From Armatimonadota bacterium (lineage in GTDB: Bacteria > Armatimonadota > HRBIN16): a stretch of 64,000 nt of DNA. Where the stretch lies: assembly GCA_040289885.1 (NCBI GenBank), contig PSLZ01000005.1:26598-90597 (forward strand), in the 5' to 3' direction. Shown here piece after piece: positions 10,444 through 60,315 of the stretch. Under the pieces are notes generated by a model. That model was not told where the DNA came from. It worked only from the letters and a program-made list of their open reading frames with translations, and made no database searches. Both the position numbers and the translations under genes were made by a program. Positions within the stretch are counted from its first letter, which is position 1; the number at the start of each line of letters is the position of its first letter.

Positions 10444-10473
10444 TTGACAAACCGTGCACCGAATAGGTATAGT
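10444..10473 (+). promoter_or_regulatory. sigma-70 type promoter (-35 TTGACA, 18-bp spacer, -10 TATAGT) for the NlpC/P60 gene
   Basis: TTGACA 10444-10449, TATAGT 10468-10473, followed by RBS AGGAGGTG and ATG 10530. Confidence 0.55.
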
Positions 10474-10529
10474 CACGAGGCGTTGTAGGCTGTTCCAGCG
10501 CCACAAACGCACATTCAGGAGGTGAACCG

Positions 10530-11492
10530 ATGGCACGATGGCTCACACTCTGCACCTTGACAATCGTAACTAGCGTCTTGTGGATAACGGGTGCTGATGC
10601 CCAGCATGTGATTGTGGTTAAAGAGAACGATACGGTGTGGTGCTTGGCAAAGCGATACCATGTTCTGCCTCAGGACATCGTGAAAGTCAACGGTCTGAAG
10701 AACCCTGATTCGCTGAAGCCGGGTATGCGCCTGAAAATCCCGCCTGCCGTCAAACCAAAGGCAGTACCCACCACCATGCGCAAGACGGCAGTGATCAACG
10801 CCGGCAGAGTGTGCGTGCGGTATGCCCCGAACCGGACGGACCGCTCGATGGTGCTGTTGGATAAGGGACACCCCATTCTGGTGACGGCGCGCAGAGGGAA
10901 CTGGCTCCAAGTCAAGCTGGCAAGTGGACGAATCGGCTGGGTGCGCGATGACCTGGTAAAGGTGACAGGCATCCTGGCCACACGATCGCCAAAGACGAAA
11001 AGACCAGTGATGGCGAAGCATACGCCGAAACCGTCCCAGCCAAAGCGCAAGACGGCATCTGCCCAGAAGAGCAAGCGTCCCGTCATTGTCGCCAGCAACT
11101 CGGGAGCATTTGGTACATCCACCGGCGAATCGATCGTTCGCACCGCCTCGCGCTTCCGCGGGGTACGTTACCGATGGGGAGGCTCTTCGCGCAGTGGGTT
11201 CGATTGCTCGGGCTTCACGCGCTACGTTTTTCGGCATAGAGCGGGCATCGAACTGCCCCACTCCGCCAGCGCGCAGTTTCGACGAGGCACGCCGGTGCCG
11301 CGCAACCAGCTGAAGCCGGGCGACCTGGTCTTCTTCCAGACCTACCGGCGAGGCGCGTCGCACGTCGGTATCTACATCGGCAACGGCAAGTTCATCCACG
11401 CATCCAGTACAGGTGGGCGCGTTCGGATCGACAGCCTGAACGAAGGCTATTACCGCCAGCGCTATCTCGGAGCGCGCCGGGTAACCCAGTGA
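10530..11492 (+). CDS. peptidoglycan endopeptidase: LysM + SH3b + NlpC/P60 domain protein
   Basis: Signal peptide; LysM (VKENDTVWCLAKRYHV...GMRLKIP); SH3b (WLQVKLASGRIGWVRDDLV); NlpC/P60 catalytic region YRWGGSSRSGFDCSGFTRYVF...HVGIYIGNGKFIHAS. Confidence 0.88.
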   Translation: MARWLTLCTLTIVTSVLWITGADAQHVIVVKENDTVWCLAKRYHVLPQDIVKVNGLKNPDSLKPGMRLKIPPAVKPKAVPTTMRKTAVINAGRVCVRYAPNRTDRSMVLLDKGHPILVTARRGNWLQVKLASGRIGWVRDDLVKVTGILATRSPKTKRPVMAKHTPKPSQPKRKTASAQKSKRPVIVASNSGAFGTSTGESIVRTASRFRGVRYRWGGSSRSGFDCSGFTRYVFRHRAGIELPHSASAQFRRGTPVPRNQLKPGDLVFFQTYRRGASHVGIYIGNGKFIHASSTGGRVRIDSLNEGYYRQRYLGARRVTQ

Positions 11493-12029: not shown

Positions 12030-12935
12030 ATGAGCACCAACAACCCGGTCAACCGAAGAGGAAGCTCGCAGGGCACTCCGACCCTAACGCCGAACCGCAA
12101 GCCGGCGTCATCGGAGGCGCCTTCCCTGCTCAACCGGCTGACGCGCGTTGCGTTGCTCACGCCAGAGGAAGAGCAGGAACTGGCGGAGCGTGCTCGCAAG
12201 GGCGATGAAGAGGCGCGCCAGAAGCTGGTTGAAGCCAACATGCGCCTGGTGATGAACATCGCCAAACATTACCGCAACGCGCTCGTCCCGTTCGAGGACC
12301 TTGTGCAGGAAGGTGCCATCGGGCTGATGAACGCGGTGGAGCGGTACGACCCCTCCAGGGGCTATCGCTTCAGCACCTACGCGACGCACTGGATACGGCA
12401 GGCGATCGGGCGGGCAATAGATAACAAGGCGAAGACGGTGCGTATCCCCGCACACGTTGCCGAACAACTGCGCCGGATGGAACGCGAGCGGGAACGCCTG
12501 CGCCGGGAGACCGGCGATGAGCCAAGCGTCGAACAGCTGGCGAAAGCGATGGGCGTGTCGCCTAAGAAGATATTGCAGCTCCAGCAGGCGGCACAGGAGC
12601 CGTTGTCGCTCGATATGCTAGTCGGCGAAGAGGAAGATACCTCGCTGGGGTCCCTGATCCATGACCAGAATGTGCGCGACCCCGAAGAGGTGATGCTGGA
12701 GCGCGAACGACGCAAAATGCTGGACGAGCTCCTGGAAACCGAGCTCACCGAACGTGAACGACAGGTCATCATCCGCCGGCTGGGCTACGGCGACCAGGAT
12801 GAACAGGTCTTACAGGAGATAGGAGAGGCGCTGAAGATCTCGCGCGAACGGGTGCGCCAGATCGAAGCGCAAGCCATGCGTAAACTCAAGGACGCGGCTA
12901 AACGTCGGGGTTTACGCGAATACCTTCTGCAGTAG
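12030..12935 (+). CDS. RNA polymerase sigma factor, sigma-70 (RpoD/SigA) family, group-2-like (regions 1.2-4.2, no region 1.1)
   Basis: 301 aa; region 2 FSTYATHWIRQAIGRAI; region 4.2 TLQEIGEALKISRERVRQIEAQAMRKL; RBS GAGGAA. Confidence 0.88.
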   Translation: MSTNNPVNRRGSSQGTPTLTPNRKPASSEAPSLLNRLTRVALLTPEEEQELAERARKGDEEARQKLVEANMRLVMNIAKHYRNALVPFEDLVQEGAIGLMNAVERYDPSRGYRFSTYATHWIRQAIGRAIDNKAKTVRIPAHVAEQLRRMERERERLRRETGDEPSVEQLAKAMGVSPKKILQLQQAAQEPLSLDMLVGEEEDTSLGSLIHDQNVRDPEEVMLERERRKMLDELLETELTERERQVIIRRLGYGDQDEQVLQEIGEALKISRERVRQIEAQAMRKLKDAAKRRGLREYLLQ

Positions 12936-13084: not shown

Positions 13085-15070
13085 ATGCAGAAATCCAGTT
13101 CCGAACCCAGATGGCAAACAGCAACCGCCAAAGCCTTTCATCTGCACGAATGGACGTTCAGCCTCCAGCCATCGGGCAACCCCTTCTCCCCCGCTGACAA
13201 CGACATCACCGCGGAGATTCGCCTGCCAACAGGGGAGACGATACGTCAGCCCGCCTTCTGGGATGGCGATAACACGTGGAAGGTACGGTTGGCTCTGCTT
13301 CGCTCCGGTCGTATCCATTGGAGACTGCTAAAGAACGGCTCCCCGCTGTCGGTGTCGGCGTGGGTGGAAGTGAAACCGATATCGTCACAAGCGACATTGG
13401 GCTTCGTTCGCCGGCACCCTCGCCTCAAGCAGTTTACCACCGACGCCGGCAAAACCTTCTATCCGATCGGGCAGAACGTCGGGTGGAGAACGCCGAGCAC
13501 CGACTACCCCCTCTTCTTCGAGCAGATGTCACAAGCGGGCATGAACTGGGCGCGGATATGGCTGTGCCATTGGGACGGTAAGAACCCGGACTGGGTCATG
13601 AGCAAGCGGATGGAACCCGGCTGGCTGGATATGGAGGTCATTCGTCGCCTCGAGAAGATCGTGCACCTCGCGGAAAGGTTCGGTATTTATATCCAGCTCA
13701 CCCTCCAGCATCACGGACAATACTCCACCCGCACCAACCCGAACTGGGCAGAGAACCCCTGGAACAAGCAGCACGGAGGCTTTCTCGACACCCCCGAACA
13801 GTTCTTCACCCATCCTCGCGCCCTGGAGCTCACGCGCCACAAGTACCGCTACCTCGTTGCGCGATGGGGATACTCCCCGCATCTCATGGCATGGGAACTC
13901 TTTAATGAGGTGGAGTGGACCGATGCTGCTGCCAACGGTAAATGGGATGTTATCGCCCAGTGGCACCGCGAGATGGCACGCTTCCTCCGCTCAATAGACG
14001 TGCATCAACATCTGATAACCACCAGCTCTGCCATGGATGTTCCCAGCCTGTGGGTGGAGATGGACTACTACCAGCCCCATTATTACGTGCCGGATATCGC
14101 GGGCACGCTGTTCGAAATGACACCTGCGCGGAGGAATAAACCCATCTTCATCGGCGAGTGGGGTGGTGCGAACCCGCGACAGTGGGGCGATGAAGCCTTC
14201 CTTCGACAGGGACTGTGGGTCGGCGTGATGCGCGGACTGGCGGGAGGGGCGCAGTGGTGGTCCTGGGAAACCACCGAAGCACGCAAGTGGTACGCCCAGT
14301 GGGCATCCCTATCGCAGTTCTTGAAGATGGCGGGCTTTGTTTCCGGGAATCTCTGGCAGCCCATCTCCGCACAGGTGATGTCGAAGGCACGTGCGCCGTT
14401 CCGCTTCTCGCCGGGGGGCGGATGGGAAAGCACACAGCGGTACCGCTTCATCGTGCCAACCGATGGCTCCGCTATCGAGGGATTATCGCTCCTCTCGCGG
14501 TTCATACAGGGCGAGTCGCACCGCGACATGTGTCGGGAGCCTGTGGTGTTCGAAGTGGAGTTCGCACAGGCTGGAAGATGCACGCTACATATCGGCACGG
14601 TTGCCCGTAGCGGCGCTGGCATTATTGTCAGGCTGGACAACGAGATAGTCGCCCAGGAACGGTTCTCCTCCGCACAACGGGATACCTTCGTGAACCGTGA
14701 GATCACCTTCCCTGTGCCAGCAGGCAAGCATACGATTTCCGTCTGCAACCCAGGACCCGACTGGTTTACACTGGACAGCGTGACGCTGACGCCCTACGCA
14801 CCGCCAAACAAGGTCGCCGTTTGTGGAGATGGACAAAACGCCATGTGGTATCTGTGGCGCGAGCAACCGGTGGACGCGTCGGTCACGTTGAAGATACCGA
14901 GTACTCCACCGGGAAGATATAAGGTTACGTGGTGGAACCCTTCCACTGGCAGAGCGATACACACCGAGACCGTAGCGGTGGCACAAGGAGGATTAGCGCT
15001 GAAGGTTCCCGTGCACGAGCGGGACATCGCCGGCTGTTTGAGCCCTGCGGGGCGCCGAGCCAGCCTGTAA
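13085..15070 (+). CDS. glycoside hydrolase family 5 protein (DUF5060-like N-terminus + GH5 catalytic domain)
   Basis: 661 aa; GH5 catalytic acid/base motif WELFNEVE; RBS GAGGAA; 3' end overlaps the rnpB 3' end by ~20 nt. Confidence 0.75.
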   Translation: MQKSSSEPRWQTATAKAFHLHEWTFSLQPSGNPFSPADNDITAEIRLPTGETIRQPAFWDGDNTWKVRLALLRSGRIHWRLLKNGSPLSVSAWVEVKPISSQATLGFVRRHPRLKQFTTDAGKTFYPIGQNVGWRTPSTDYPLFFEQMSQAGMNWARIWLCHWDGKNPDWVMSKRMEPGWLDMEVIRRLEKIVHLAERFGIYIQLTLQHHGQYSTRTNPNWAENPWNKQHGGFLDTPEQFFTHPRALELTRHKYRYLVARWGYSPHLMAWELFNEVEWTDAAANGKWDVIAQWHREMARFLRSIDVHQHLITTSSAMDVPSLWVEMDYYQPHYYVPDIAGTLFEMTPARRNKPIFIGEWGGANPRQWGDEAFLRQGLWVGVMRGLAGGAQWWSWETTEARKWYAQWASLSQFLKMAGFVSGNLWQPISAQVMSKARAPFRFSPGGGWESTQRYRFIVPTDGSAIEGLSLLSRFIQGESHRDMCREPVVFEVEFAQAGRCTLHIGTVARSGAGIIVRLDNEIVAQERFSSAQRDTFVNREITFPVPAGKHTISVCNPGPDWFTLDSVTLTPYAPPNKVAVCGDGQNAMWYLWREQPVDASVTLKIPSTPPGRYKVTWWNPSTGRAIHTETVAVAQGGLALKVPVHERDIAGCLSPAGRRASL

Positions 15071-20082: not shown

Positions 20083-20218
20083 TGATTATTTTTGTCATTA
20101 TGCTGTTTATCGTCGTTCTGACTCACTTCTTCCCGTCATTCCGAGCTTCTCTCTTGTCATTCTGAGCGAAGCGAAGAATCTCAACCGAGATGCAGAACTA
20201 CGTTCATCATGACAAAAA
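20083..20218. repeat. MITE/REP-like element, copy A: degenerate GTCATTCYGAGC direct repeats, full unit tgtcattctgagcgaagcgaagaatctcaaccgagatgc, terminal inverted repeats atttttgtcat / atgacaaaaa
   Basis: AT-richer island in a high-GC intergenic region; 39-nt core shared almost exactly with loci at 28924, 31996 (reverse) and 63691 (reverse, partial). Confidence 0.7.
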
Positions 20219-28816: not shown

Positions 28817-28923
28817 GCCTCTCCCCGTTGCGCTTTTTTGTCCACCGCATAGGACAACCCTGCTCATCGCAATCCTACCGCCGCCATCCGAAGCGCCAGG
28901 GGCTACCACTCTAAGCCCCCTCT

Positions 28924-29022
28924 TGTCATTCTGAGCGAAGCGAAGAATCCCAACCGAGATGCTTCGCTGGCGCTCAGCATGACAACAACGACGTCATTCG
29001 GAGCCGCGAGGCGAAGAAGCCC
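28924..29022. repeat. MITE/REP-like element, copy B: tgtcattctgagcgaagcgaagaatcccaaccgagatgcttcgctggcgctcagcatgaca hairpin unit plus partial unit gtcattcggagccgcgaggcgaagaagccc
   Basis: Palindromic arms TGTCAT..CTGAGC..GAAGC / GCTTC..CTCAG..ATGACA; intergenic between mqnP start and next gene. Confidence 0.7.
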
Positions 29023-31950: not shown

Positions 31951-32125
31951 GTCATGCCGAGAAGCGTCGCCGTGATCATGCTGAGCATCAGCGAAGCATC
32001 TCGGTTGGGGTTCTTCGCTCCGCTCAGAATGACAGAGAGAGACTCACAATGACAAGAAGAGATGGCGCAGAATGATAGGGAAAAAGCAGTGCAGAATGAC
32101 GGGGAAACGAATGACAGAACGAGAA
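31951..32125. repeat. MITE/REP-like element, copy C (reverse orientation) followed by 5 degenerate ~20-bp tandem repeats of CAGAATGAC
   Basis: gcatctcggttggggttcttcgctccgctcagaatgaca (reverse complement of the GTCATTCTGAGC core), then cagaatgacagagagagact / cacaatgacaagaagag / cagaatgataggg / cagaatgacgggg / cgaatgacagaacg. Confidence 0.7.
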
Positions 32126-33363: not shown

Positions 33364-33651
33364 ATGGTGAAGACGCTGATCTATTGCCATCGAGACTGGA
33401 ACGACAGCGCGGGCGAATGGAGTGCACGACGCAATCTGTGTGTTCAGACAAGCCGGGAGCTGGGGCTGGTGAACACGGTAGAAGCTGAAGACTTCGCCAC
33501 CCTCCAACGGCTCTGTACGCGTGAGGGATACCAACACGTAATCGTGCCCAGTACGATGCACACCCCACCAGAGGTGCTCCTGTGGCTGAAAAAGCAGGGG
33601 ATCCGTATCCACGACGCCACGCGCCTGCTAGCGAACCGGGCTAGTAGATAG
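33364..33651 (+). CDS. small hypothetical protein
   Basis: 95 aa [19 protein letters not shown]...; RBS GGAGGGGGG 4 nt before ATG. Confidence 0.5.
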
Positions 33652-34747
33652 CCTTCTGCGTCTCCTTATCAAACAGGTGCGTCTTGTCCATGTCCAGCAC
33701 GATCTCCAGCTCCTCTCCTTCCTTCGCCTTCGTATCGGCGTCGATAGTGGCGACGAGCTGGTGCGTGCCAAGGGTCAAATACACCGTGACCACCGCCCCC
33801 ATCGGCTCGATGACGTCGACCATCGCCTTGAGTGTGTTCCCGTCGTGCGCGGTGGTCATGGGCGCCAGCGCCTTGTCGAAAATATCCTCCGGGCGCACGC
33901 CGAACACCACCTGCTTGTCCACCCAAGGCTGAACCTTATCCGCGGCGAACTTGGGCAGAAGCAGTTTGAAATCGCCGCCGTCCACATAGTATTCCTCGCC
34001 GCTGCGCTTCAGCGTCACATCGAGGAAGTTCATCGGTGGCGTACCGATGAAGCCGGCGACGAACATGTTCACCGGGTAATGATAGATGTTTAGCGGGGTA
34101 TCCACCTGCTGTAGAACGCCGTCTTTGATGACCGCGATGCGGTCGCCCATCGTCATCGCTTCCACCTGGTCATGCGTGACGTAAATGGTGGTGACCGCCA
34201 GTCGCCTCTGCAGTTTGATCAGCTCGGCACGCGTCTGCACGCGTAGTTTGGCGTCCAGGTTGGAGAGCGGCTCGTCCATCAGGAACACCTGCGGCTCGCG
34301 AACGATCGCACGCCCCAGCGCGACCCGCTGTCGCTGACCGCCCGATAACTGCTTGGGCTTGCGGTCCAAAAGCCCTTCCAACCCCAGCAGTTTCGCTGCC
34401 TCATGCACCCTGCGCTGAATCTCCGCCTTGGGGAACTTACGCATGCGCAGAGCGAACGCCATGTTGTCGTACACCGTCATGTGAGGATACAGCGCGTAGT
34501 TCTGGAACACCATAGCGATATCGCGGTCCTTAGGCTGAACGTCGTTCACCAGCCGGTCGCCGATGTATATTTCGCCGGAGGTGACCTCTTCCAGCCCAGC
34601 GATCATGCGCAGTGCGGTGGTCTTCCCACAGCCAGAAGGTCCTACCAGCACGAGAAACTCTTTATCTTTGATCTCCAGATTGAGGTCGTTGACGGCAACG
34701 ACGTTTTTGAATACTTTGGTCAGATGCTTTAGCGTGACCGATGCCAC
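33641..34747 (-). CDS. ABC transporter ATP-binding protein, MalK/UgpC/MsmX (CUT1) family
   Basis: Walker [10 protein letters not shown], signature LSGGQRQR, Walker [13 protein letters not shown]-terminal TOBE domain; GTG start after GGAGGG. Confidence 0.9.
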
Positions 34748-34920
34748 GGCTCACCGCCCTCCGGTTGAGTGTTTATCTCCTATTTATCATAGGGGAAAGC
34801 GATTCCTGCTGTCAAGCCGCCGTAGCTTTCCACCCTCAGATTGAATGAGACACCGACCAAGTTACTTCGCCAAACAATGTAGCCGTAGCGTCGAAACCCA
34901 TAATGCCCACAGGACGCCCA

Positions 34921-34995
34921 AAAAAATCTCACAATTTTTTGCGTCAAAAAGAGGAAAAACCCCGTTTTTGGTACGAATCTTGCAGTATATATACG
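34921..34995 (+). promoter_or_regulatory. sigma-54 promoter module (plus strand): CACAATTTTTT...AAAAACCCCGTTTTTGGTACGAATCTTGCAGTATATATAC
   Basis: -24 TGGTAC 34969-34974, -12 TTGCA 34980-34984; ~65 nt upstream of the PEP-CTERM/C-type lectin gene. Confidence 0.6.
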
Positions 34996-35048
34996 GCGGG
35001 AAGACACGACACGATGAATCCCTATATGGGATGAAAGGAGGTACGACT

Positions 35049-35615
35049 GTGTTGTTCAGCGTCTATCGTCGGATAGGGCTGATAGCTGGCTTGAGCCTGC
35101 TTTTCGTACATGCGGCGCACAGCTACACCCTGCTTAACTCGACCGTCTGGTCGGTCAATGGACACCTCTACCAGGTCTATGGCGGTTCCAGCACTTGGGA
35201 CGACGCCGCAGCCTTCGCCAGCACGGTGCAGGTGCCAGGATTCTACAATGGCTACCTGGCGACTGTGCATAGCGACGCGGAAAATACCGTCATCACCAAC
35301 CTGCTGACCCTGCCCGCCTGGTTGGGAGGCTACCAACCCCCAGGCGAGCTCAACCCGAATGCCAACTGGCGATGGGTGTCGGGCGAACCGTGGACCTACA
35401 CGAACTGGTACCCCGGCCAGCCGGACGACCATCTCGGTCCCGGTAGCGAGCCGTACCTGGTTATCTACACGAACGGAATGTGGCATGACTACCCGGGAGG
35501 TACTGCCACTCGCCCATCGTTCGTGGTAGAGCTGAACCCGGTTCCCGACCCAGCGAGTATTCTCGGACTAGGCATGGGTGTAGCAGGTCTGTTCCTGCGC
35601 CGCCGCAAACGCTAA
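35049..35615 (+). CDS. secreted C-type lectin-like domain protein with PEP-CTERM anchor
   Basis: RBS AAGGAGGT 6 nt before GTG 35049; signal peptide; WLGGY...NWRWVSGEPWTYTNWYPGQPDD...YLVIYTNGMWHD (CTLD-like); C-terminus PVPDPASILGLGMGVAGLFLRRRKR. Confidence 0.75.
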   Translation: MLFSVYRRIGLIAGLSLLFVHAAHSYTLLNSTVWSVNGHLYQVYGGSSTWDDAAAFASTVQVPGFYNGYLATVHSDAENTVITNLLTLPAWLGGYQPPGELNPNANWRWVSGEPWTYTNWYPGQPDDHLGPGSEPYLVIYTNGMWHDYPGGTATRPSFVVELNPVPDPASILGLGMGVAGLFLRRRKR

Positions 35616-35997: not shown

Positions 35998-36606
35998 ATG
36001 CAGGAACCCCAAGTAACCAGCAAACGACCGACCGCACGTGACCGCATCATGCGCGCCGCGGAAGCCCTCTTCGCCGAACACGGCTTCGAAGCCACGTCCA
36101 TCGGTGAGATCGCCCTGCGCGCACACGTGAACCGTGCCCTGCTGTACTACTATTTCGAGCACAAGGAGGACCTGTACCACCAGCTCCTGCAAGAGGGCGT
36201 GGAGAAACTGCGAGCGGTCGTGCTCAACGCGCTCAACGTGACCGAATCCGTACGGGAAGCGATACGCACGTTCCTGCGCGGCTACCTGCAGATCGCGTAC
36301 CATAACCCCGGGCTGGTGCGTATCGTCTACCGAGAGATCGCCGGAGCACAGCGCGGGGACCAGGAGAGCCAGAGGCTCGTTCAACAGTTCATGCAGACCG
36401 TCGCCCAGATGGAGCAGGTTTTACAAAGAGGTATCAAAAGCGGAGAGCTGGTGCCCCACGATACCAGCAAAAGCGTGTATATGCTGTTCGGCATGACCAA
36501 TGTCTTCGTGACCCTCACCTACCTCGAACAGGCATACTACCCGCCAGACGAGATAATAGACCATATCCTTCAGGTCTTCTTCGAGGGATTGGGTGCACGC
36601 TCATAA
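35998..36606 (+). CDS. TetR/AcrR family transcriptional regulator
   Basis: N-terminal HTH RIMRAAEALFAEHGFEATSIGEIALRAHVNRALLYYYF; RBS GGAGGGAAG. Confidence 0.88.
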   Translation: MQEPQVTSKRPTARDRIMRAAEALFAEHGFEATSIGEIALRAHVNRALLYYYFEHKEDLYHQLLQEGVEKLRAVVLNALNVTESVREAIRTFLRGYLQIAYHNPGLVRIVYREIAGAQRGDQESQRLVQQFMQTVAQMEQVLQRGIKSGELVPHDTSKSVYMLFGMTNVFVTLTYLEQAYYPPDEIIDHILQVFFEGLGARS

Positions 36607-36646
36607 GCGGTTGCACCCATGTCGTGTGGCGGTGCTGGTGCGATGG

Positions 36647-38635
36647 CTACGTCTCTAGCACCAGTGCCGCTACGGTACTCAGCAGTTCCGCATCGTGCCG
36701 GGTGAACTTGCGCGGCTGAAGGGTATATACCGCCAGCAGGCTGGTAGGCTTCTTGCCTCCGATGGGCACTGCCAGACAAGATGCCATCCCTTCACGCTGG
36801 ACAAATGGGTCGTCCCGAAACCGCACATCGGCGGAAGCCTGATAAACCAGAAGCGGGCGCCCCGTCTTTAACACCCACCCCATGCTCGCCATGCCTGTCG
36901 CCTCTTCGTCGTCCAGCAGGGTCGCCATTCGCGAGCCGCTCACCGCCATCGGCTTGATGCGGTTCCCTTCTACCATGTAGTAGATCGCGCGGTCCGCGCG
37001 CAACACCTCGGCGGCGATATTGGCAATCAATTGGGGAACTTCGCCCTGCTTGACCGTGCTCCCAATAGCCTTCGCCACCCGCAAGAAGTACTGGCGCAGG
37101 TCTTCCGACTTCTGCCGCTCTTCCTCATAGCGCATGGCGTTGTCAATGGCAACCGCAGCCTGATTGGCGATCGTGTACAGAAGCTCCATCTCCGCAATGG
37201 TAAACAGCCGCCGGCGACTGCTCATCGCTAGCATCACGCCCATCGGCTCCATGCCGACCTGCAGAGGCACACACGCCAGAGAAACAACCCCCTGCTGGTC
37301 CAGCGGAACCGCTGTGTTGCGAGGGTCGGCGGAGACATCCAACACATACACCGGGCTCTGGAACTCCAGCACCCAACCCGGAATCCCCTGCCCTTTGGTG
37401 GGGCGCAGACGGTCAAAATACACCGGGTCCACCCCGCGGCTCACATAGGTGCGCAGAACACCCTCGTTGCTGTCGTACAGCATCAACGCGAACTTGTCCA
37501 CCTGCAGGAGCCGAAGCACGCTGTCCGCCACCAAGTCCAGCACGCTGTGCAGTTCCAGCGACGAGTTGACCGACTGCGACAGCTCGTAAATCGAGGTTGC
37601 CTCCTCCGCACGCCGATGGGCATCCTCATACAGCAGGGCGTTCTCGATGGCGATACCAGCCTGCGACGCAACGCCGTTCAGCAGTTTCAGGTCGGCTTCG
37701 GTGTAGGCGTTGCGGCTGGTGCTGGTGACCAACAGCAGTCCCAGCGTCTTCGTGCGCGATCTAACGGGTGCATACAACGCAGAATGGATCCGCAGGCGCG
37801 GCACAAACTGCTCCACCCCAGGCTCTAGGTCCGCAGCGTTGACCAGTCGCGGCTCGCCACTGCGCAAGACCTCCGCCTGCAAGCCTTCATCCGCCGCCAG
37901 CATGATTTCGCGCTCCTCGCCTTCCAGCCCCCGCTCCGCCGCAATGAACAGGTGCGTGCGCTCGTCATTAAGCAGAAACAGCACGGCGAACGCATGAGGG
38001 AGATGCGCCGCAACCTCCTCTAGAACCGTGTCTAGCACCTGATTGAGGTTCAAACTACTGCCGATGCTCTGCGCGGCGTGGTACATCACCTCCAGCTCGC
38101 GCCGCAGACGGTCATTGCGCTGTTCTAGCTGCCGACGCCGCCACAGGCTGGCAACATGCGATGCCAGTATCTGAAGGCTCCGAATATCCGAAGAATCGAA
38201 CCGCGAGCCGTCACGCTTGTTGAGCACTGCCAGCGCACCAAGTATCTGCTGGTCACACTGTATCGGCACCACCGCCGCGCCGCGCAGGCGCGTTCCACCC
38301 AGCAGACTCTCCATCACAGGGTCGGCATGCATGGGGTAGAAGGGGATGGCGTTCTCACCGCGGCGCACCGTGCTCTCCATCAACGAGTTCTCCACACGAA
38401 ACACCGTACCGCGAAGGTCCTGTATTCCCTCTCCCGCAACCGCTACCAGGCGCAGCTTTGCCTCGCTCTCGGTGAGGAAAGCCACCGCGCTCGCACTGGC
38501 GTCGGTCAACACGCAGGCTTCCTCCGCGATGCGGCGTAACGCCTCCTCCAGCGGCAAGGGGTCTACGGCTATCTGCGCCGCCCGGTGAAATCCGGCAACC
38601 TGCTGTTCCCACGAGACGATGCTCTCTGTGTCCAT
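36647..38635 (-). CDS. multi-GAF domain sensor protein (about four tandem GAF domains, no recognisable output domain)
   Basis: ~660 aa of repeated GAF-like units; start ATG 38635 (MDTESIV) after GAAGGGG; ORF-track upstream 34 aa look spurious. Confidence 0.7.
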
Positions 38636-38838
38636 GCCCTGCCCCTTCGCTCTGGGCAAATGTTCTATTGCACCATTATTGTTACTACACCTGTCAACCT
38701 TTGTCAAGCAAAGATGCACATGTGAACACTTCGACACTCCCGCTTTTTCTCCTGCGCCCAGCAGGAATGAACGCTTCGTGTGGTAAAATATTAGTTACCC
38801 AAAGCGTAATCTCTCCGACGCAAAGGAGGTTCTCGAAC

Positions 38839-40818
38839 ATGAGCGACGGTATTACCGAAGCAACCCGAGCACAGGCGGCTATCGAAGCCCTTCTGCGGGA
38901 GAATCGCACGTTTCCACCGTCGGAATCGTTCCGCGCACAGGCAAACGTGAACGACCCGCAAATATACGACATCGCCGAGAAAGACCCCGAAGCGTTCTGG
39001 GCAGGTTTCGCCAGCGAACTGGAGTGGTTTGAGCCATGGCAGAAGGTCTTGCAGTGGGACCCTCCTTACGCCCAATGGTTCATCGGCGGAAAACTCAATG
39101 CTTGCGTGAACTGCGTGGACAGGCACCTGCGCACAGCCCGGCGCAACAAAGCGGCAATCATCTGGGAAGGGGAACCTGGCGAAGAGCGGGTACTAACCTA
39201 CTGGGACCTCTACCGCGAGGTTACCAAGTTCGCAAACGTGCTGAAACGGCTCGGCGTGCACCGAGGCGACCGCGTGGTGATCTACATGCCGATGATCCCC
39301 GAAGCAGCGATCGCGATGCTCGCTTGTGCACGAATCGGCGCGCCACACTCGGTGGTATTCGGTGGGTTCTCCTCCGAAGCCTTGCGCGAGCGCATTAACG
39401 ACTGCGGCGCCAAGGTCGTCATCACTGCCGACGGCGGTTATCGGCGCGGTAACATCGTGCAACTCAAACGCGCCACCGACGAAGCGGTGGAACACTGCCC
39501 CACCGTTCAGCACGTGATCGTCTATAACCGCGCGATGGACCCCACGCACGTGCCGATGCTGGAAGGGCGCGACCACTGGTGGCATCGCCTGATGGAACAC
39601 GCCCCCATGCACTGCGAGCCCGAAGCCATGGACTCGGAGGACCTTCTGTACATCCTCTACACCTCGGGCTCTACCGGCAAGCCCAAAGGCATCGCACATA
39701 CGACCGGCGGCTATCTCACAGGCGTCTACGCCACCACCAAATGGGTCTTCGACCTGAAGGACGATGACCTTTTCTGGTGCACGGCGGACATCGGTTGGGT
39801 GACCGGCCACTCCTACGTGGTCTATGGTCCTCTCGCCAACGGTGCCACGGTACTGATGTACGAGGGAGCACCCGACTATCCCGACCGCGACCGATTCTGG
39901 GCGCTGGTGGAGAAATACCGTGTGACCGTGTTCTACACCGCTCCCACCGCCATTCGTGCCTTCATGAAGTGGGGTCCAGATTATCCCCAGCGCCATGACC
40001 TCTCCAGCCTGCGCCTGTTGGGCAGTGTCGGCGAGCCGATTAACCCTGAGGCGTGGATGTGGTATCACCTCTACATCGGCGGACAGCGATGCCCTATCGT
40101 CGACACGTGGTGGCAAACCGAGACGGGGCACATCTTGATCACCCCTCTGCCCGGAATCACCACCACCAAGCCCGGCTCCGCGACGCGCCCCTTCCCGGGC
40201 ATTGAGGCAGATGTGCTGGACGAACAGGGCAACTCGGTGCCGTTGGGCGGAGGCGGCTACCTGGTCATCAAGAAGCCGTGGCCCGGAATGCTCCGCACCA
40301 TCTATGGCGACCCTGAGCGGTACGTGGAACAGTACTGGAGCCGCTTCCCCGGTATCTACTTCACGGGAGACGGCTGTAAGCGCGACGAAGACGGCTACTA
40401 CTGGCTATTGGGGCGCGTGGACGACGTGATGAACGTGGCGGGACATCGCATCAGTACCATGGAGGTCGAGTCGGCGCTGGTAGACCATCCTGCTGTCGCC
40501 GAGGCAGCGGTCATCGGCAAATCGCACGAGATCAAGGGGCAAGCCATCGCTGCCTTTGTGACGCTGAAAGAAGGCTATCGCGCAGGCAGTGAGATGGTAG
40601 AGGAACTGAAGGAGCACGTCGTGCAGAAAATCGGACCCATCGCGCGCCCCGATGACATCTTGTTCACGTCTGAACTGCCCAAGACGCGCTCAGGCAAAAT
40701 CATGCGCCGCCTCTTGCGCGATATCGCGGAAGGACGCGCGCTGGGCGATACCACCACCCTGGCTGATCCGGCGGTGGTTGCCGCGCTCAAACAGCGCTAC
40801 GAAGAGCACGAGACCTAA
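38839..40818 (+). CDS. acs: acetate--CoA ligase (acetyl-CoA synthetase)
   Basis: RBS AAAGGAGGT 8 nt before ATG 38839; AMP-binding motif [11 protein letters not shown]; full-length ACS architecture; extended -10 TGTGGTAAAAT upstream. Confidence 0.95.
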
Positions 40819-40887: not shown

Positions 40888-40917
40888 GTTGACGAAATCC
40901 TACCTGTTGTGCTATGC
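40888..40917 (+). promoter_or_regulatory. promoter of tRNA-Ser (-35 TTGACG, -10 TATGCT)
   Basis: ttgacgaaatcctacctgttgtgctatgct ~65 nt upstream of the tRNA. Confidence 0.4.
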
Positions 40918-40981
40918 TATTGTATGCCGATTCGAACCGCCTTGTATCAGCACATTCCTATCGCTACAGGACGGCGGTCGC

Positions 40982-41068
40982 GGAGAGGTGGCCGAGTGGT
41001 TGAAGGCACCGGTCTTGAAAACCGGCAGGCGATGAGCCTCGTGGGTTCGAATCCCACCCTCTCCGCCA
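40982..41068 (+). tRNA. tRNA-Ser (anticodon UGA), long variable arm, CCA encoded
   Basis: Acceptor ggagagg/cctctcc; D-arm gccgagtggttgaaggc; anticodon loop cuUGAaa; T-arm gtgggttcgaatcccac; discriminator G + CCA. Confidence 0.9.
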
Positions 41069-59740: not shown

Positions 59741-59812
59741 CAAATTTGCACCAATTTTTCCTCTCGGAGGCGCAAAATCCCCGTTTTTGGCACGATTCTT
59801 GTGTATAGGAGA
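59741..59812 (+). promoter_or_regulatory. sigma-54 promoter module (plus strand): ...CACCAATTTTTCC...AAAATCCCCGTTTTTGGCACGATTCTTGTGTATAGG
   Basis: -24 TGGCAC 59788-59793, -12 TTGTG 59799-59803; ~60 nt upstream of a secreted-protein gene; third copy of the module. Confidence 0.55.
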
Positions 59813-59862
59813 TGATGGTTGGTCTAGTGACTAATCGATACCACTTCACGGAGGAAAACGCC

Positions 59863-60315
59863 ATGAACAAACATCTCGCTTTGTGGAGCCTGGCTGTGGC
59901 TGTTCTGCTCATGGCAGTGCCCGCGCTCGCACAGACATGGGTGCCTGTGGGAACAGCCGAAGGCGGTATCGCGGTGTATTTTAACGACACCAACGAGGTA
60001 CCCACGAACGTTTCGTACATCCGGGTGCAGTACGCCAACTCCACCACCAACGTGAACGGGGCTTCTATCAGCATGTTGGAACCGTTTAAGACCATCTTTG
60101 GTGACTTGGGGCAGTACGGGTTTGACGGTATCGCCCTTGCGCCCACGAACACGAACCCGCACGCTCTTCAGCGTGGGGCTGTTGCCGATTGGAACGTGGC
60201 TTCGTCGTCGGAAGGCGTAATAAAGAAAAGACGCGATAGCGGTATGGCTCACAGCCCGGCACATAGCCTGCCGGGCTGTGTGGTATACAGCCTCTGGCAG
60301 GATATGTTATCATAA
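59863..60315 (+). CDS. secreted hypothetical protein (sigma-54 module upstream; no PEP-CTERM tail as read)
   Basis: RBS GGAGG 8 nt before ATG 59863; signal peptide [25 protein letters not shown]; a perfect hairpin cagcccggca-N7-tgccgggctg lies inside the last 60 nt of the ORF. Confidence 0.6.

Follow-up and report, generated by a model that had tools for sequence, protein, structure and literature searches.

A GAF-only protein encoded divergently from acs belongs to an uncharacterised Armatimonadota family with a kinase-linked sister clade

In the phosphodiesterases PDE2A, PDE5A and PDE6 and in CyaB2, two GAF domains stand head to tail on long continuous helices and are fused to a phosphodiesterase or cyclase output. 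Proteins that consist of GAF domains only are also an already known kind; they are common in databases, though few have a known ligand or partner. NreA of Staphylococcus carnosus, which is encoded in the nreABC operon together with its partner, is a nitrate sensor with a single GAF fold that forms a complex with the kinase NreB and leaves it when nitrate binds (PMC12423327). Here we describe a gene on a 64,000-nucleotide stretch of an Armatimonadota genome (lineage HRBIN16; assembly GCA_040289885.1, contig PSLZ01000005.1, positions 26,598 to 90,597; hereafter the window) that encodes a protein of four GAF domains and is divergent from the acetate--CoA ligase gene acs. The four-GAF protein is a new, uncharacterised member of the GAF-only kind, and it belongs to an uncharacterised family spread across the phylum Armatimonadota. 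In a sister clade of this family, whose members have a fifth GAF domain, the gene for an RsbW-like kinase lies just downstream in about two-thirds of loci.

The coding sequence occupies 36647-38635 of the window on the minus strand. The maximal minus-strand open reading frame (ORF) is longer (36647-38737, 696 aa), but we place the start at the ATG at 38633-38635, which gives a protein of 662 residues (plus stop codon) opening with MDTESIV, because homologues of 655-664 aa begin at MDTESIV or MDAESIV and because the sequence 5' of this ATG contains indels and diverges among close relatives, while the coding part stays alignable. Pfam finds four GAF stretches in the protein, and the models of the GAF domain superfamily (Pfam PF01590, PF13185, PF13492) all pass the gathering score: GAF_2 with an E-value of 1.1e-62 and 210.7 bits (cut-off 28.6), GAF with 9.1e-58 and 195 bits, and GAF_3 with 3.8e-40 and 137.7 bits. 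No histidine kinase, GGDEF/EAL, HD-GYP, sigma-54 AAA+, HTH or PP2C domain was detected with Pfam or NCBIfam at E <= 0.1. NCBIfam matches were confined to the GAF parts of NifA, PtsP, FhlA, MadS, NorR and RamA, all far under their cut-offs, and Pfam gave no STAS match. In PADLOC, the anti-phage defence models matched neither the four-GAF protein nor the TetR-family protein encoded next to it.

The structure was predicted with AlphaFold2 (AF2) from a 116-sequence family alignment (mean predicted local distance difference test score, pLDDT, 88; predicted template modelling score, pTM, 0.52). The model contains four alpha/beta units, at about aa 25-147, 197-312, 362-479 and 530-661, each with the central antiparallel sheet and flanking helices of the GAF superfamily fold, and these are joined by three continuous helices of 44-46 residues each (H148-191, H313-358 and H480-525). 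Every residue is placed either in one of the four GAF folds or in a connecting helix, so none are spare for a hidden PAS, PHY or output domain. The four units are also mutually related by profile-profile comparison (hhalign probability 92-99%). A first-pass annotation, made from the letters of the window, had described a protein of about 660 aa consisting only of tandem GAF-like units and lacking any conventional output domain. Both points hold: there are four GAF domains in 662 aa, every unit is GAF, Pfam, NCBIfam and the AF2 model all lack an output, Pfam gives no PAS or PHY hit, and the model leaves no space for a cryptic domain. The absence of an output is kept in the homologues of the protein.

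When the model was compared with the PDB using Foldseek, the helix-linked tandem GAFs of PDE2A, PDE5A, PDE6 and CyaB2 headed the matches, with phytochrome GAF-PHY modules next (E 5e-16 to 1e-13). The likeness to the phosphodiesterases and CyaB2 lies in GAF folds set head to tail on long continuous helices; unlike these proteins, the four-GAF protein is not fused to an output, and sequence identity to them is only 13-20%. By sequence, the closest solved relatives of the full-length protein are isolated GAF domains (5w10, 4mcw, 3e0y and DevS GAF-A; E >= 4e-11).

The four domains differ considerably in conservation, which was measured against 97 homologues of less than 60% identity. All lie on the minus strand: GAF1 (about aa 25-165, 38141-38563), which was delimited from the AF2 secondary structure and has a variable insert at aa 95-118; GAF2 (about aa 196-335, 37631-38050), the best Pfam GAF_2 stretch (residues 229-365 of the 696-aa ORF); GAF3 (about aa 361-500, 37136-37555); and GAF4 (about aa 526-661, 36653-37060), which was delimited from the AF2 model and ends at the same residue in clade homologues. 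The last helix of GAF4 is the C-terminus of the protein, with no signalling helix or output beyond it. Mean identity to the distant homologues is 53% for GAF2, 64% for the second linker and 59% for GAF3, the most conserved domain, compared with 32-33% for GAF1 and GAF4, GAF1 being the least conserved at 32%. GAF2 and GAF3, together with the second linker, thus form the conserved core of the protein. Most of the invariant residues sit in GAF3, in the motifs G415xGIxGWV, D437xR and R475-R476-x-F-T...E482xxLLYT..Q, and GAF3 alone finds the isolated GAF chain 5w10 as its best PDB sequence match (5.9e-12). GAF1 carries the motif N139-K140-x5-F146-x3-D150 (N 89%, K/R 97%, F 95%, D 96%). Cyclic-nucleotide-binding GAF domains of the PDE/CyaB type have the NKFDE motif, N-K-Xn-F-X3-D-E; GAF1 fits four of its five positions, but the fifth is hydrophobic. 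The motif is absent from GAF2, GAF3 and GAF4.

To find relatives, we searched a species-representative genome set, which yielded 415 candidate stretches at tblastn E <= 1e-3, a loose threshold under which other GAF proteins may be among the 415. The best 80 of these were examined, and all came from Armatimonadota bar one probably mis-binned contig. Full-length homologues of 34-48% identity occur in Chthonomonadia/Chthonomonadaceae, Armatimonadales and Capsulimonadaceae, and the full-length proteins form three roughly equidistant groups with 40-42% identity between them. The cultivable Chthonomonas calidirosea has a homologue of 45% identity (locus L026). Clade A, to which the window's protein belongs, comprises proteins of 655-664 aa and 85-95% identity from hot-spring and subsurface metagenome-assembled genomes (MAGs) labelled Armatimonadota, Chthonomonadia, HR16 or KatS3mg022. 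Clade B, from Chthonomonadaceae/Chthonomonadales, has four GAF domains and a tail of about 15 residues, and clade C, from Armatimonadales/Capsulimonadaceae, has its C-terminus extended by 120-190 residues. Genes of the family are nearly always free-standing, in variable contexts. Database names for the homologues are generic only ('GAF domain-containing protein' or 'hypothetical protein'), and in the literature on output-less multi-GAF proteins, on GAF domains with partner switching and on GAF domains with acs we found no characterised homologue. Its conservation throughout this little-studied phylum suggests that the family has a core part in regulation there.

In an all-protein phmmer search the list is headed by giant multi-GAF proteins, because their scores sum over repeats, and the family itself accounts for about 30 representatives of 640-900 aa. 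These giant proteins and the multi-GAF histidine kinases resemble the four-GAF protein in their repeated GAF_2-type domains and in joining helices of the 'IENAxLYE' type. They differ in their length (1,400-3,900 aa, with up to 18 matched stretches) and in their lower identity, 25-31% compared with 34-48% inside the family, and they presumably carry kinase or other outputs. Within the window, a 661-aa ORF at 13085-15070 was considered as a GAF paralogue and rejected, as it is GH5 cellulase-like.

The clade C proteins are 37-43% identical to the window's protein across all four GAF domains and their linkers. Their C-terminal extension consists of a fourth long helix and a trimmed GAF-like unit, that is, a fifth GAF, neither of which is present in clade A. 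Clade C tails align with GAF2 at an hhalign probability of 83%, and the AF2 model of one clade C protein (P0118) places a helix at H652-697 followed by an alpha-beta4-alpha unit with pLDDT 80-90. When flanking ORFs from the genome scan were clustered, a same-strand gene of about 140-190 codons was found about 75-350 bp 3' of the GAF gene in 23 of the 35 clade C loci; four additional look-ups bring this to 27 of 39. The product is a HATPase_c_2 protein (Pfam 2.9e-25) whose nearest NCBIfam models are RsbW and SpoIIAB, below their cut-offs. Its tblastn match begins about 110-350 bp past the GAF ORF, and in the look-up loci the gaps between the called genes are 73-200 bp. Conversely, in both of two look-ups that started from the kinase family, the gene immediately upstream encodes a multi-GAF protein of about 800 aa.

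This pairing spans a wide range of sequences and contexts. The GAF proteins of the 23 kinase-linked loci have a mean identity of 53%, going down to 36%, and the pair is kept despite differing flanks: RluD/LspA at locus L087, MoaC/MoeA and a GGDEF gene at L088, and HisS and an AP endonuclease at L091. Examples within loci L040-L091 lie at 8001-10882 of L087, 8001-11137 of L088, 2396-5423 of L090 and 2524-5420 of L091; in L087 the kinase gene, the neighbour of the P0118 gene, is at 10463-10882. The GAF/HATPase_c_2 pair is the sole deep conservation of a neighbour in the family, and it provides a testable lead to what output-less sensors talk to. It is of more interest than the window's protein itself. 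A FliA/WhiG sigma gene that lies 1.7-2.4 kb downstream in 13-18 clade C loci was also considered as a partner. It was rejected as part of a local syntenic block, because a PD40 gene intervenes and because the sigma gene is absent from L087, L088 and L091.

How might a protein of this kind pass on a signal? The reading we prefer is that the four-GAF protein senses a ligand and acts in trans, without being dedicated to acs, and we put the chance that this is right at about even. By analogy with the tandem-GAF modules of PDE2/5/6 and CyaB2, two copies probably pair in parallel along the three 44-46-residue helices to give a homodimer. The protein would probably bind at least one small ligand, most likely in the conserved GAF2-GAF3 core, and the ligand-induced changes would then be carried along the helical spine, as tandem-GAF structures suggest. 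Since there is no output domain, and since NreA offers a precedent, the signal would leave through contact with another protein; action of this kind is a reasonable inference. Probably the four-GAF protein binds or releases a partner encoded by a separate gene, as NreA does with NreB. The invariant RRRxFT...ELLYT helix of GAF3 is a candidate surface for such a contact. NreA is likewise GAF-only and without an output domain; it differs in having a single GAF and an operon shared with its partner, whereas the window's protein has four GAFs and its gene looks monocistronic, and we found no specific sequence relationship between the two. For the five-GAF sister clade, the product of the gene that follows, an RsbW/SpoIIAB-type serine kinase/anti-sigma protein, is the likely partner. 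For the window's own lineage an RsbW-type partner is suggested by the sister clade alone.

Several observations weigh against this picture. The ligand, the partner and the dimeric state of this protein are putative, and the AF2 model leaves the relative placement of the domains undefined, because its pTM is only 0.52. The kinase gene is absent from about a third of the five-GAF loci, and its adjacency in the others may stem partly from shared ancestry within one class and not from selection. The fifth GAF is present in every protein that has the kinase beside it, and clades A and B lack both. In the 64-kb window we found no RsbW-like gene (best tblastn E 0.81), no STAS gene and no PP2C gene. 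Finally, a chimeric query that joined GAF4-GAF5 to the kinase found no fused protein among the 12 matches that it returned, a search of poor sensitivity.

These same observations bear on a more specific proposal, namely that the protein is a partner-switching input in the window's lineage too. There it would associate with an RsbW-like kinase/anti-sigma factor encoded elsewhere, or be phosphorylated by this kinase, and so replace a STAS antagonist. We regard this as unlikely, if still worth keeping in view. In its favor, the sister clade keeps the GAF/HATPase_c_2 pair despite deep divergence and differing flanks, and a jackhmmer search with SpoIIAA and RsbV seeds found no STAS ORF in the window or the fetched loci (for the GAF/kinase pairs, within 6-8 kb), although this negative is weak. 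Against it, the kinase-adjacent proteins all have an additional helix and a fifth mini-GAF, both missing from the window's protein, the window has no such kinase, no fusion protein was found, and no neighbour of any kind is conserved in clade B, whose proteins also have four GAFs. A profile search with the kinase family was uninformative about an orthologue in the window's clade, as its top 120 matches were all close family members. A sigma factor encoded in the window (12030-12935) was considered as a partner-switching component and rejected, as it carries region 1.2 and is of a different type.

In its fullest form, this proposal would have a multi-GAF protein without a STAS domain bind a metabolite, sequester or release an RsbW-like kinase/anti-sigma factor and perhaps be phosphorylated by it, with the window's form doing likewise through a kinase encoded elsewhere; we consider this chain of steps a speculation with a rather low chance of being right. 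If true, it would make the activity of alternative sigma factors throughout Armatimonadota depend on a metabolic signal and would be a new kind of partner-switching input.

In clade B, ORF clustering of the flanks gave no lead to a partner, as at most 5 of 36 loci had one common neighbour, an SMI1_KNR4 protein. A gene for such a protein adjoins the GAF gene in 5-6 Chthonomonadaceae loci (for example at 4854-5981 of L002 and 3183-4277 of L089), and one for a TPR protein of about 318 aa adjoins it in two, L001 (4788-5741) and L005 (8349-9305). These loci are too few for a conserved partner.

A different possibility is that the GAF folds are no longer sensory, and that the protein is a scaffold or structural protein or a GAF-fold enzyme such as free methionine-R-sulfoxide reductase (fRMsr). 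No ligand-specific signature can be assigned to any of the domains, and GAF1 and GAF4 are weakly conserved, both of which would fit such a loss. However, motifs typical of ligand-binding GAF_2 domains (GxGIxGWV and DPR) are invariant in GAF3. The fRMsr enzymes have several conserved catalytic Cys residues, whereas the family has a single conserved Cys, C455 of GAF3 (94% of 116 sequences), in the beta-strand motif LACVPL, so that the multi-Cys catalytic set is absent. NCBIfam matched no enzyme family either, fRMsr included. We therefore consider a non-sensory role improbable.

The first-pass annotation had proposed, from the position of the gene, that the protein senses a small metabolite linked to regulation of acs. 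In this view the four-GAF protein would sense acetate, acyl-CoA or a cyclic nucleotide and regulate either acs transcription or Acs activity. The local layout on which the idea rests was described correctly. The acs gene (38839-40818, plus strand) encodes an acetate--CoA ligase of 659 aa (NCBIfam NF001208, 1055.8 bits against a cut-off of 657; TIGR02188, 1014 bits), with an AGGAGG ribosome-binding site preceding its ATG at 38839. The divergent region that it shares with the GAF gene, put earlier at about 200 bp, is a spacer of 203 bp (38636-38838), and the range of 36647-38839 first assigned to the GAF gene covers the coding sequence plus this entire spacer. On the other side, a gene for a TetR-family regulator of 202 aa (35998-36606, plus strand; Pfam TetR_N 1.8e-16, and TetR_C_24) does converge on the 3' end of the GAF gene, leaving a gap of 40 bp.

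We then asked whether these neighbours are kept in relatives by comparing the window's Acs and TetR proteins with 86 fetched loci using tblastn. Acs matched 8 loci and TetR 9, all in clade A (>= 85% identity); at one further locus, L010, the upstream sequence is too short to show acs. At the acs-linked loci, the GAF proteins share 88-99% identity with one another, and at L012, a clade A locus of 87% identity, both flanks differ and only the GAF gene is common to the window. Among about 75 loci of 34-48% identity, comprising clades B and C and further look-ups, neither acs nor TetR was found within 6 kb. The divergent arrangement is thus not conserved beyond the clade of at least 85% identity, an outcome that the first-pass annotation had itself named as refuting its reading, and we rejected the acs/TetR synteny as functional evidence: it carries no functional information, because it is confined to relatives so close that gene order persists by default. 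The best reading is that the adjacency is a lineage-specific accident of gene order. Both genes are neighbours of the GAF gene, and nothing points to either being its functional partner.

What can be said for a role in acs regulation is that the divergent arrangement is real and is kept in eight close relatives, and that GAF3 has a weak match, of 22 bits where the cut-off is 500, to the GAF region of RamA, an acetate regulator; this indicates no more than that acetate regulation can involve GAF sensors. Against this stand the narrow distribution of the arrangement, the separate promoters of the two genes, which lie about 75 bp apart in the spacer, and the spread of the family through variable contexts across the phylum, which argues for a role not tied to acs. 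Pfam and NCBIfam also reveal no HTH or other DNA-binding domain, no GNAT or other acetyltransferase domain and no deacetylase domain through which the protein could act, and it belongs to none of the known kinds of acs regulator (RamA with its GAF-LuxR architecture, AcuABC, Pat/CobB). The link to acetate metabolism is unsupported, and we think it quite doubtful that the protein regulates acs. Divergence from acs is not evidence of an acetate role, and the annotation should remain GAF-domain sensor.

A sensor of light or redox state that binds bilin or haem, like the multi-GAF cyanobacteriochromes or the GAF-A domains of DosS/DosT, is highly improbable: a cyanobacteriochrome with three GAF domains (All2699) has been described, Foldseek also matches phytochrome GAF-PHY, and GAF3 weakly resembles DevS GAF-A (about 1e-6), but bilin-binding GAF domains have a conserved chromophore-attachment Cys (a Cys-His pair), with or without PAS or PHY partners, and here the lone conserved Cys, C455, lies in a beta strand without a conserved adjacent His, PAS and PHY are missing from the Pfam hits, and the structural matches are generic to tandem GAFs.

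The spacer between the GAF gene and acs has no Rfam match inside. On the minus strand, a scan identified a sigma-70-type promoter for the GAF gene at 38678-38707 (TTGACA, 18 nt, AACAAT; 10/12 matches), which is kept as the block CTTGACAAA...TAACAAT in seven aligned close relatives. On the plus strand, acs has an extended -10 element (TGG TAAAAT, 38781-38789) and, overlapping it, an imperfect palindrome GGTAA-N8-TTACC (38782-38799), the two forming a conserved block in relatives (38781-38799). The palindrome is unique in the window, with 0 occurrences expected by chance, and may be an operator for some DNA-binding regulator. This regulator is not the GAF protein, because it has no DNA-binding domain, and the palindrome was rejected as a TetR operator, as there is no copy upstream of the TetR gene or elsewhere in the window. 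An inverted repeat TCCTGC-N5-GCAGGA (38750-38766) at the acs -35 position is also conserved in close relatives, and together the two elements may be candidate operator sites for an acs regulator.

Beyond the 3' end of acs lies a tRNA-Ser(UGA) gene (40982-41068, plus strand), the only match in an Rfam scan of the locus apart from a sub-threshold sX4 match that overlaps it. It is preceded by a promoter-like site at 40889-40918 (TTGACG, 18 nt, TATGCT, with TG).

At the other end of the GAF gene, an inverted repeat GGGTGCA-N14-TGCACCC (36587-36620) extends across the TetR stop codon into the 40-bp gap before the GAF stop codon; it may be a bidirectional terminator hairpin, though it has no T-run. 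Further along, a PEP-CTERM C-type-lectin gene (34845-35615) lies between the TetR gene and a gene for a MalK-like ABC ATPase (33641-34747). At locus L003 the TetR and MalK-like genes are direct divergent neighbours, 125 bp apart, and divergence from a neighbouring gene is the more usual arrangement for TetR genes. Because the two adjoin directly in L003, the lectin gene looks like a recent insertion.

Two repeated elements were also observed in the window. An intergenic repeat of about 45-70 nt (CTCTTGTCATTCTGAGCGAAGCGAAGAATC...) occurs at 20151-20193, 28920-28993 and, inverted, 31965-32034, with 89-98% identity. Copies are also found in a related MAG (L012, 2277-2448), which suggests a family like the repetitive extragenic palindromic (REP) elements or the miniature inverted-repeat transposable elements (MITEs). 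A 60-nt element that ends in ...CCCCGTTTTTGGNACGAWTCTTG occurs at 34923-34982 and 59742-59801, the two copies being 70% identical. Each lies upstream of a secreted-protein gene, one being the PEP-CTERM/C-type-lectin gene, which probably starts near 35031, and the other the ORF at 59812-60315. The element may be a promoter or leader common to both.

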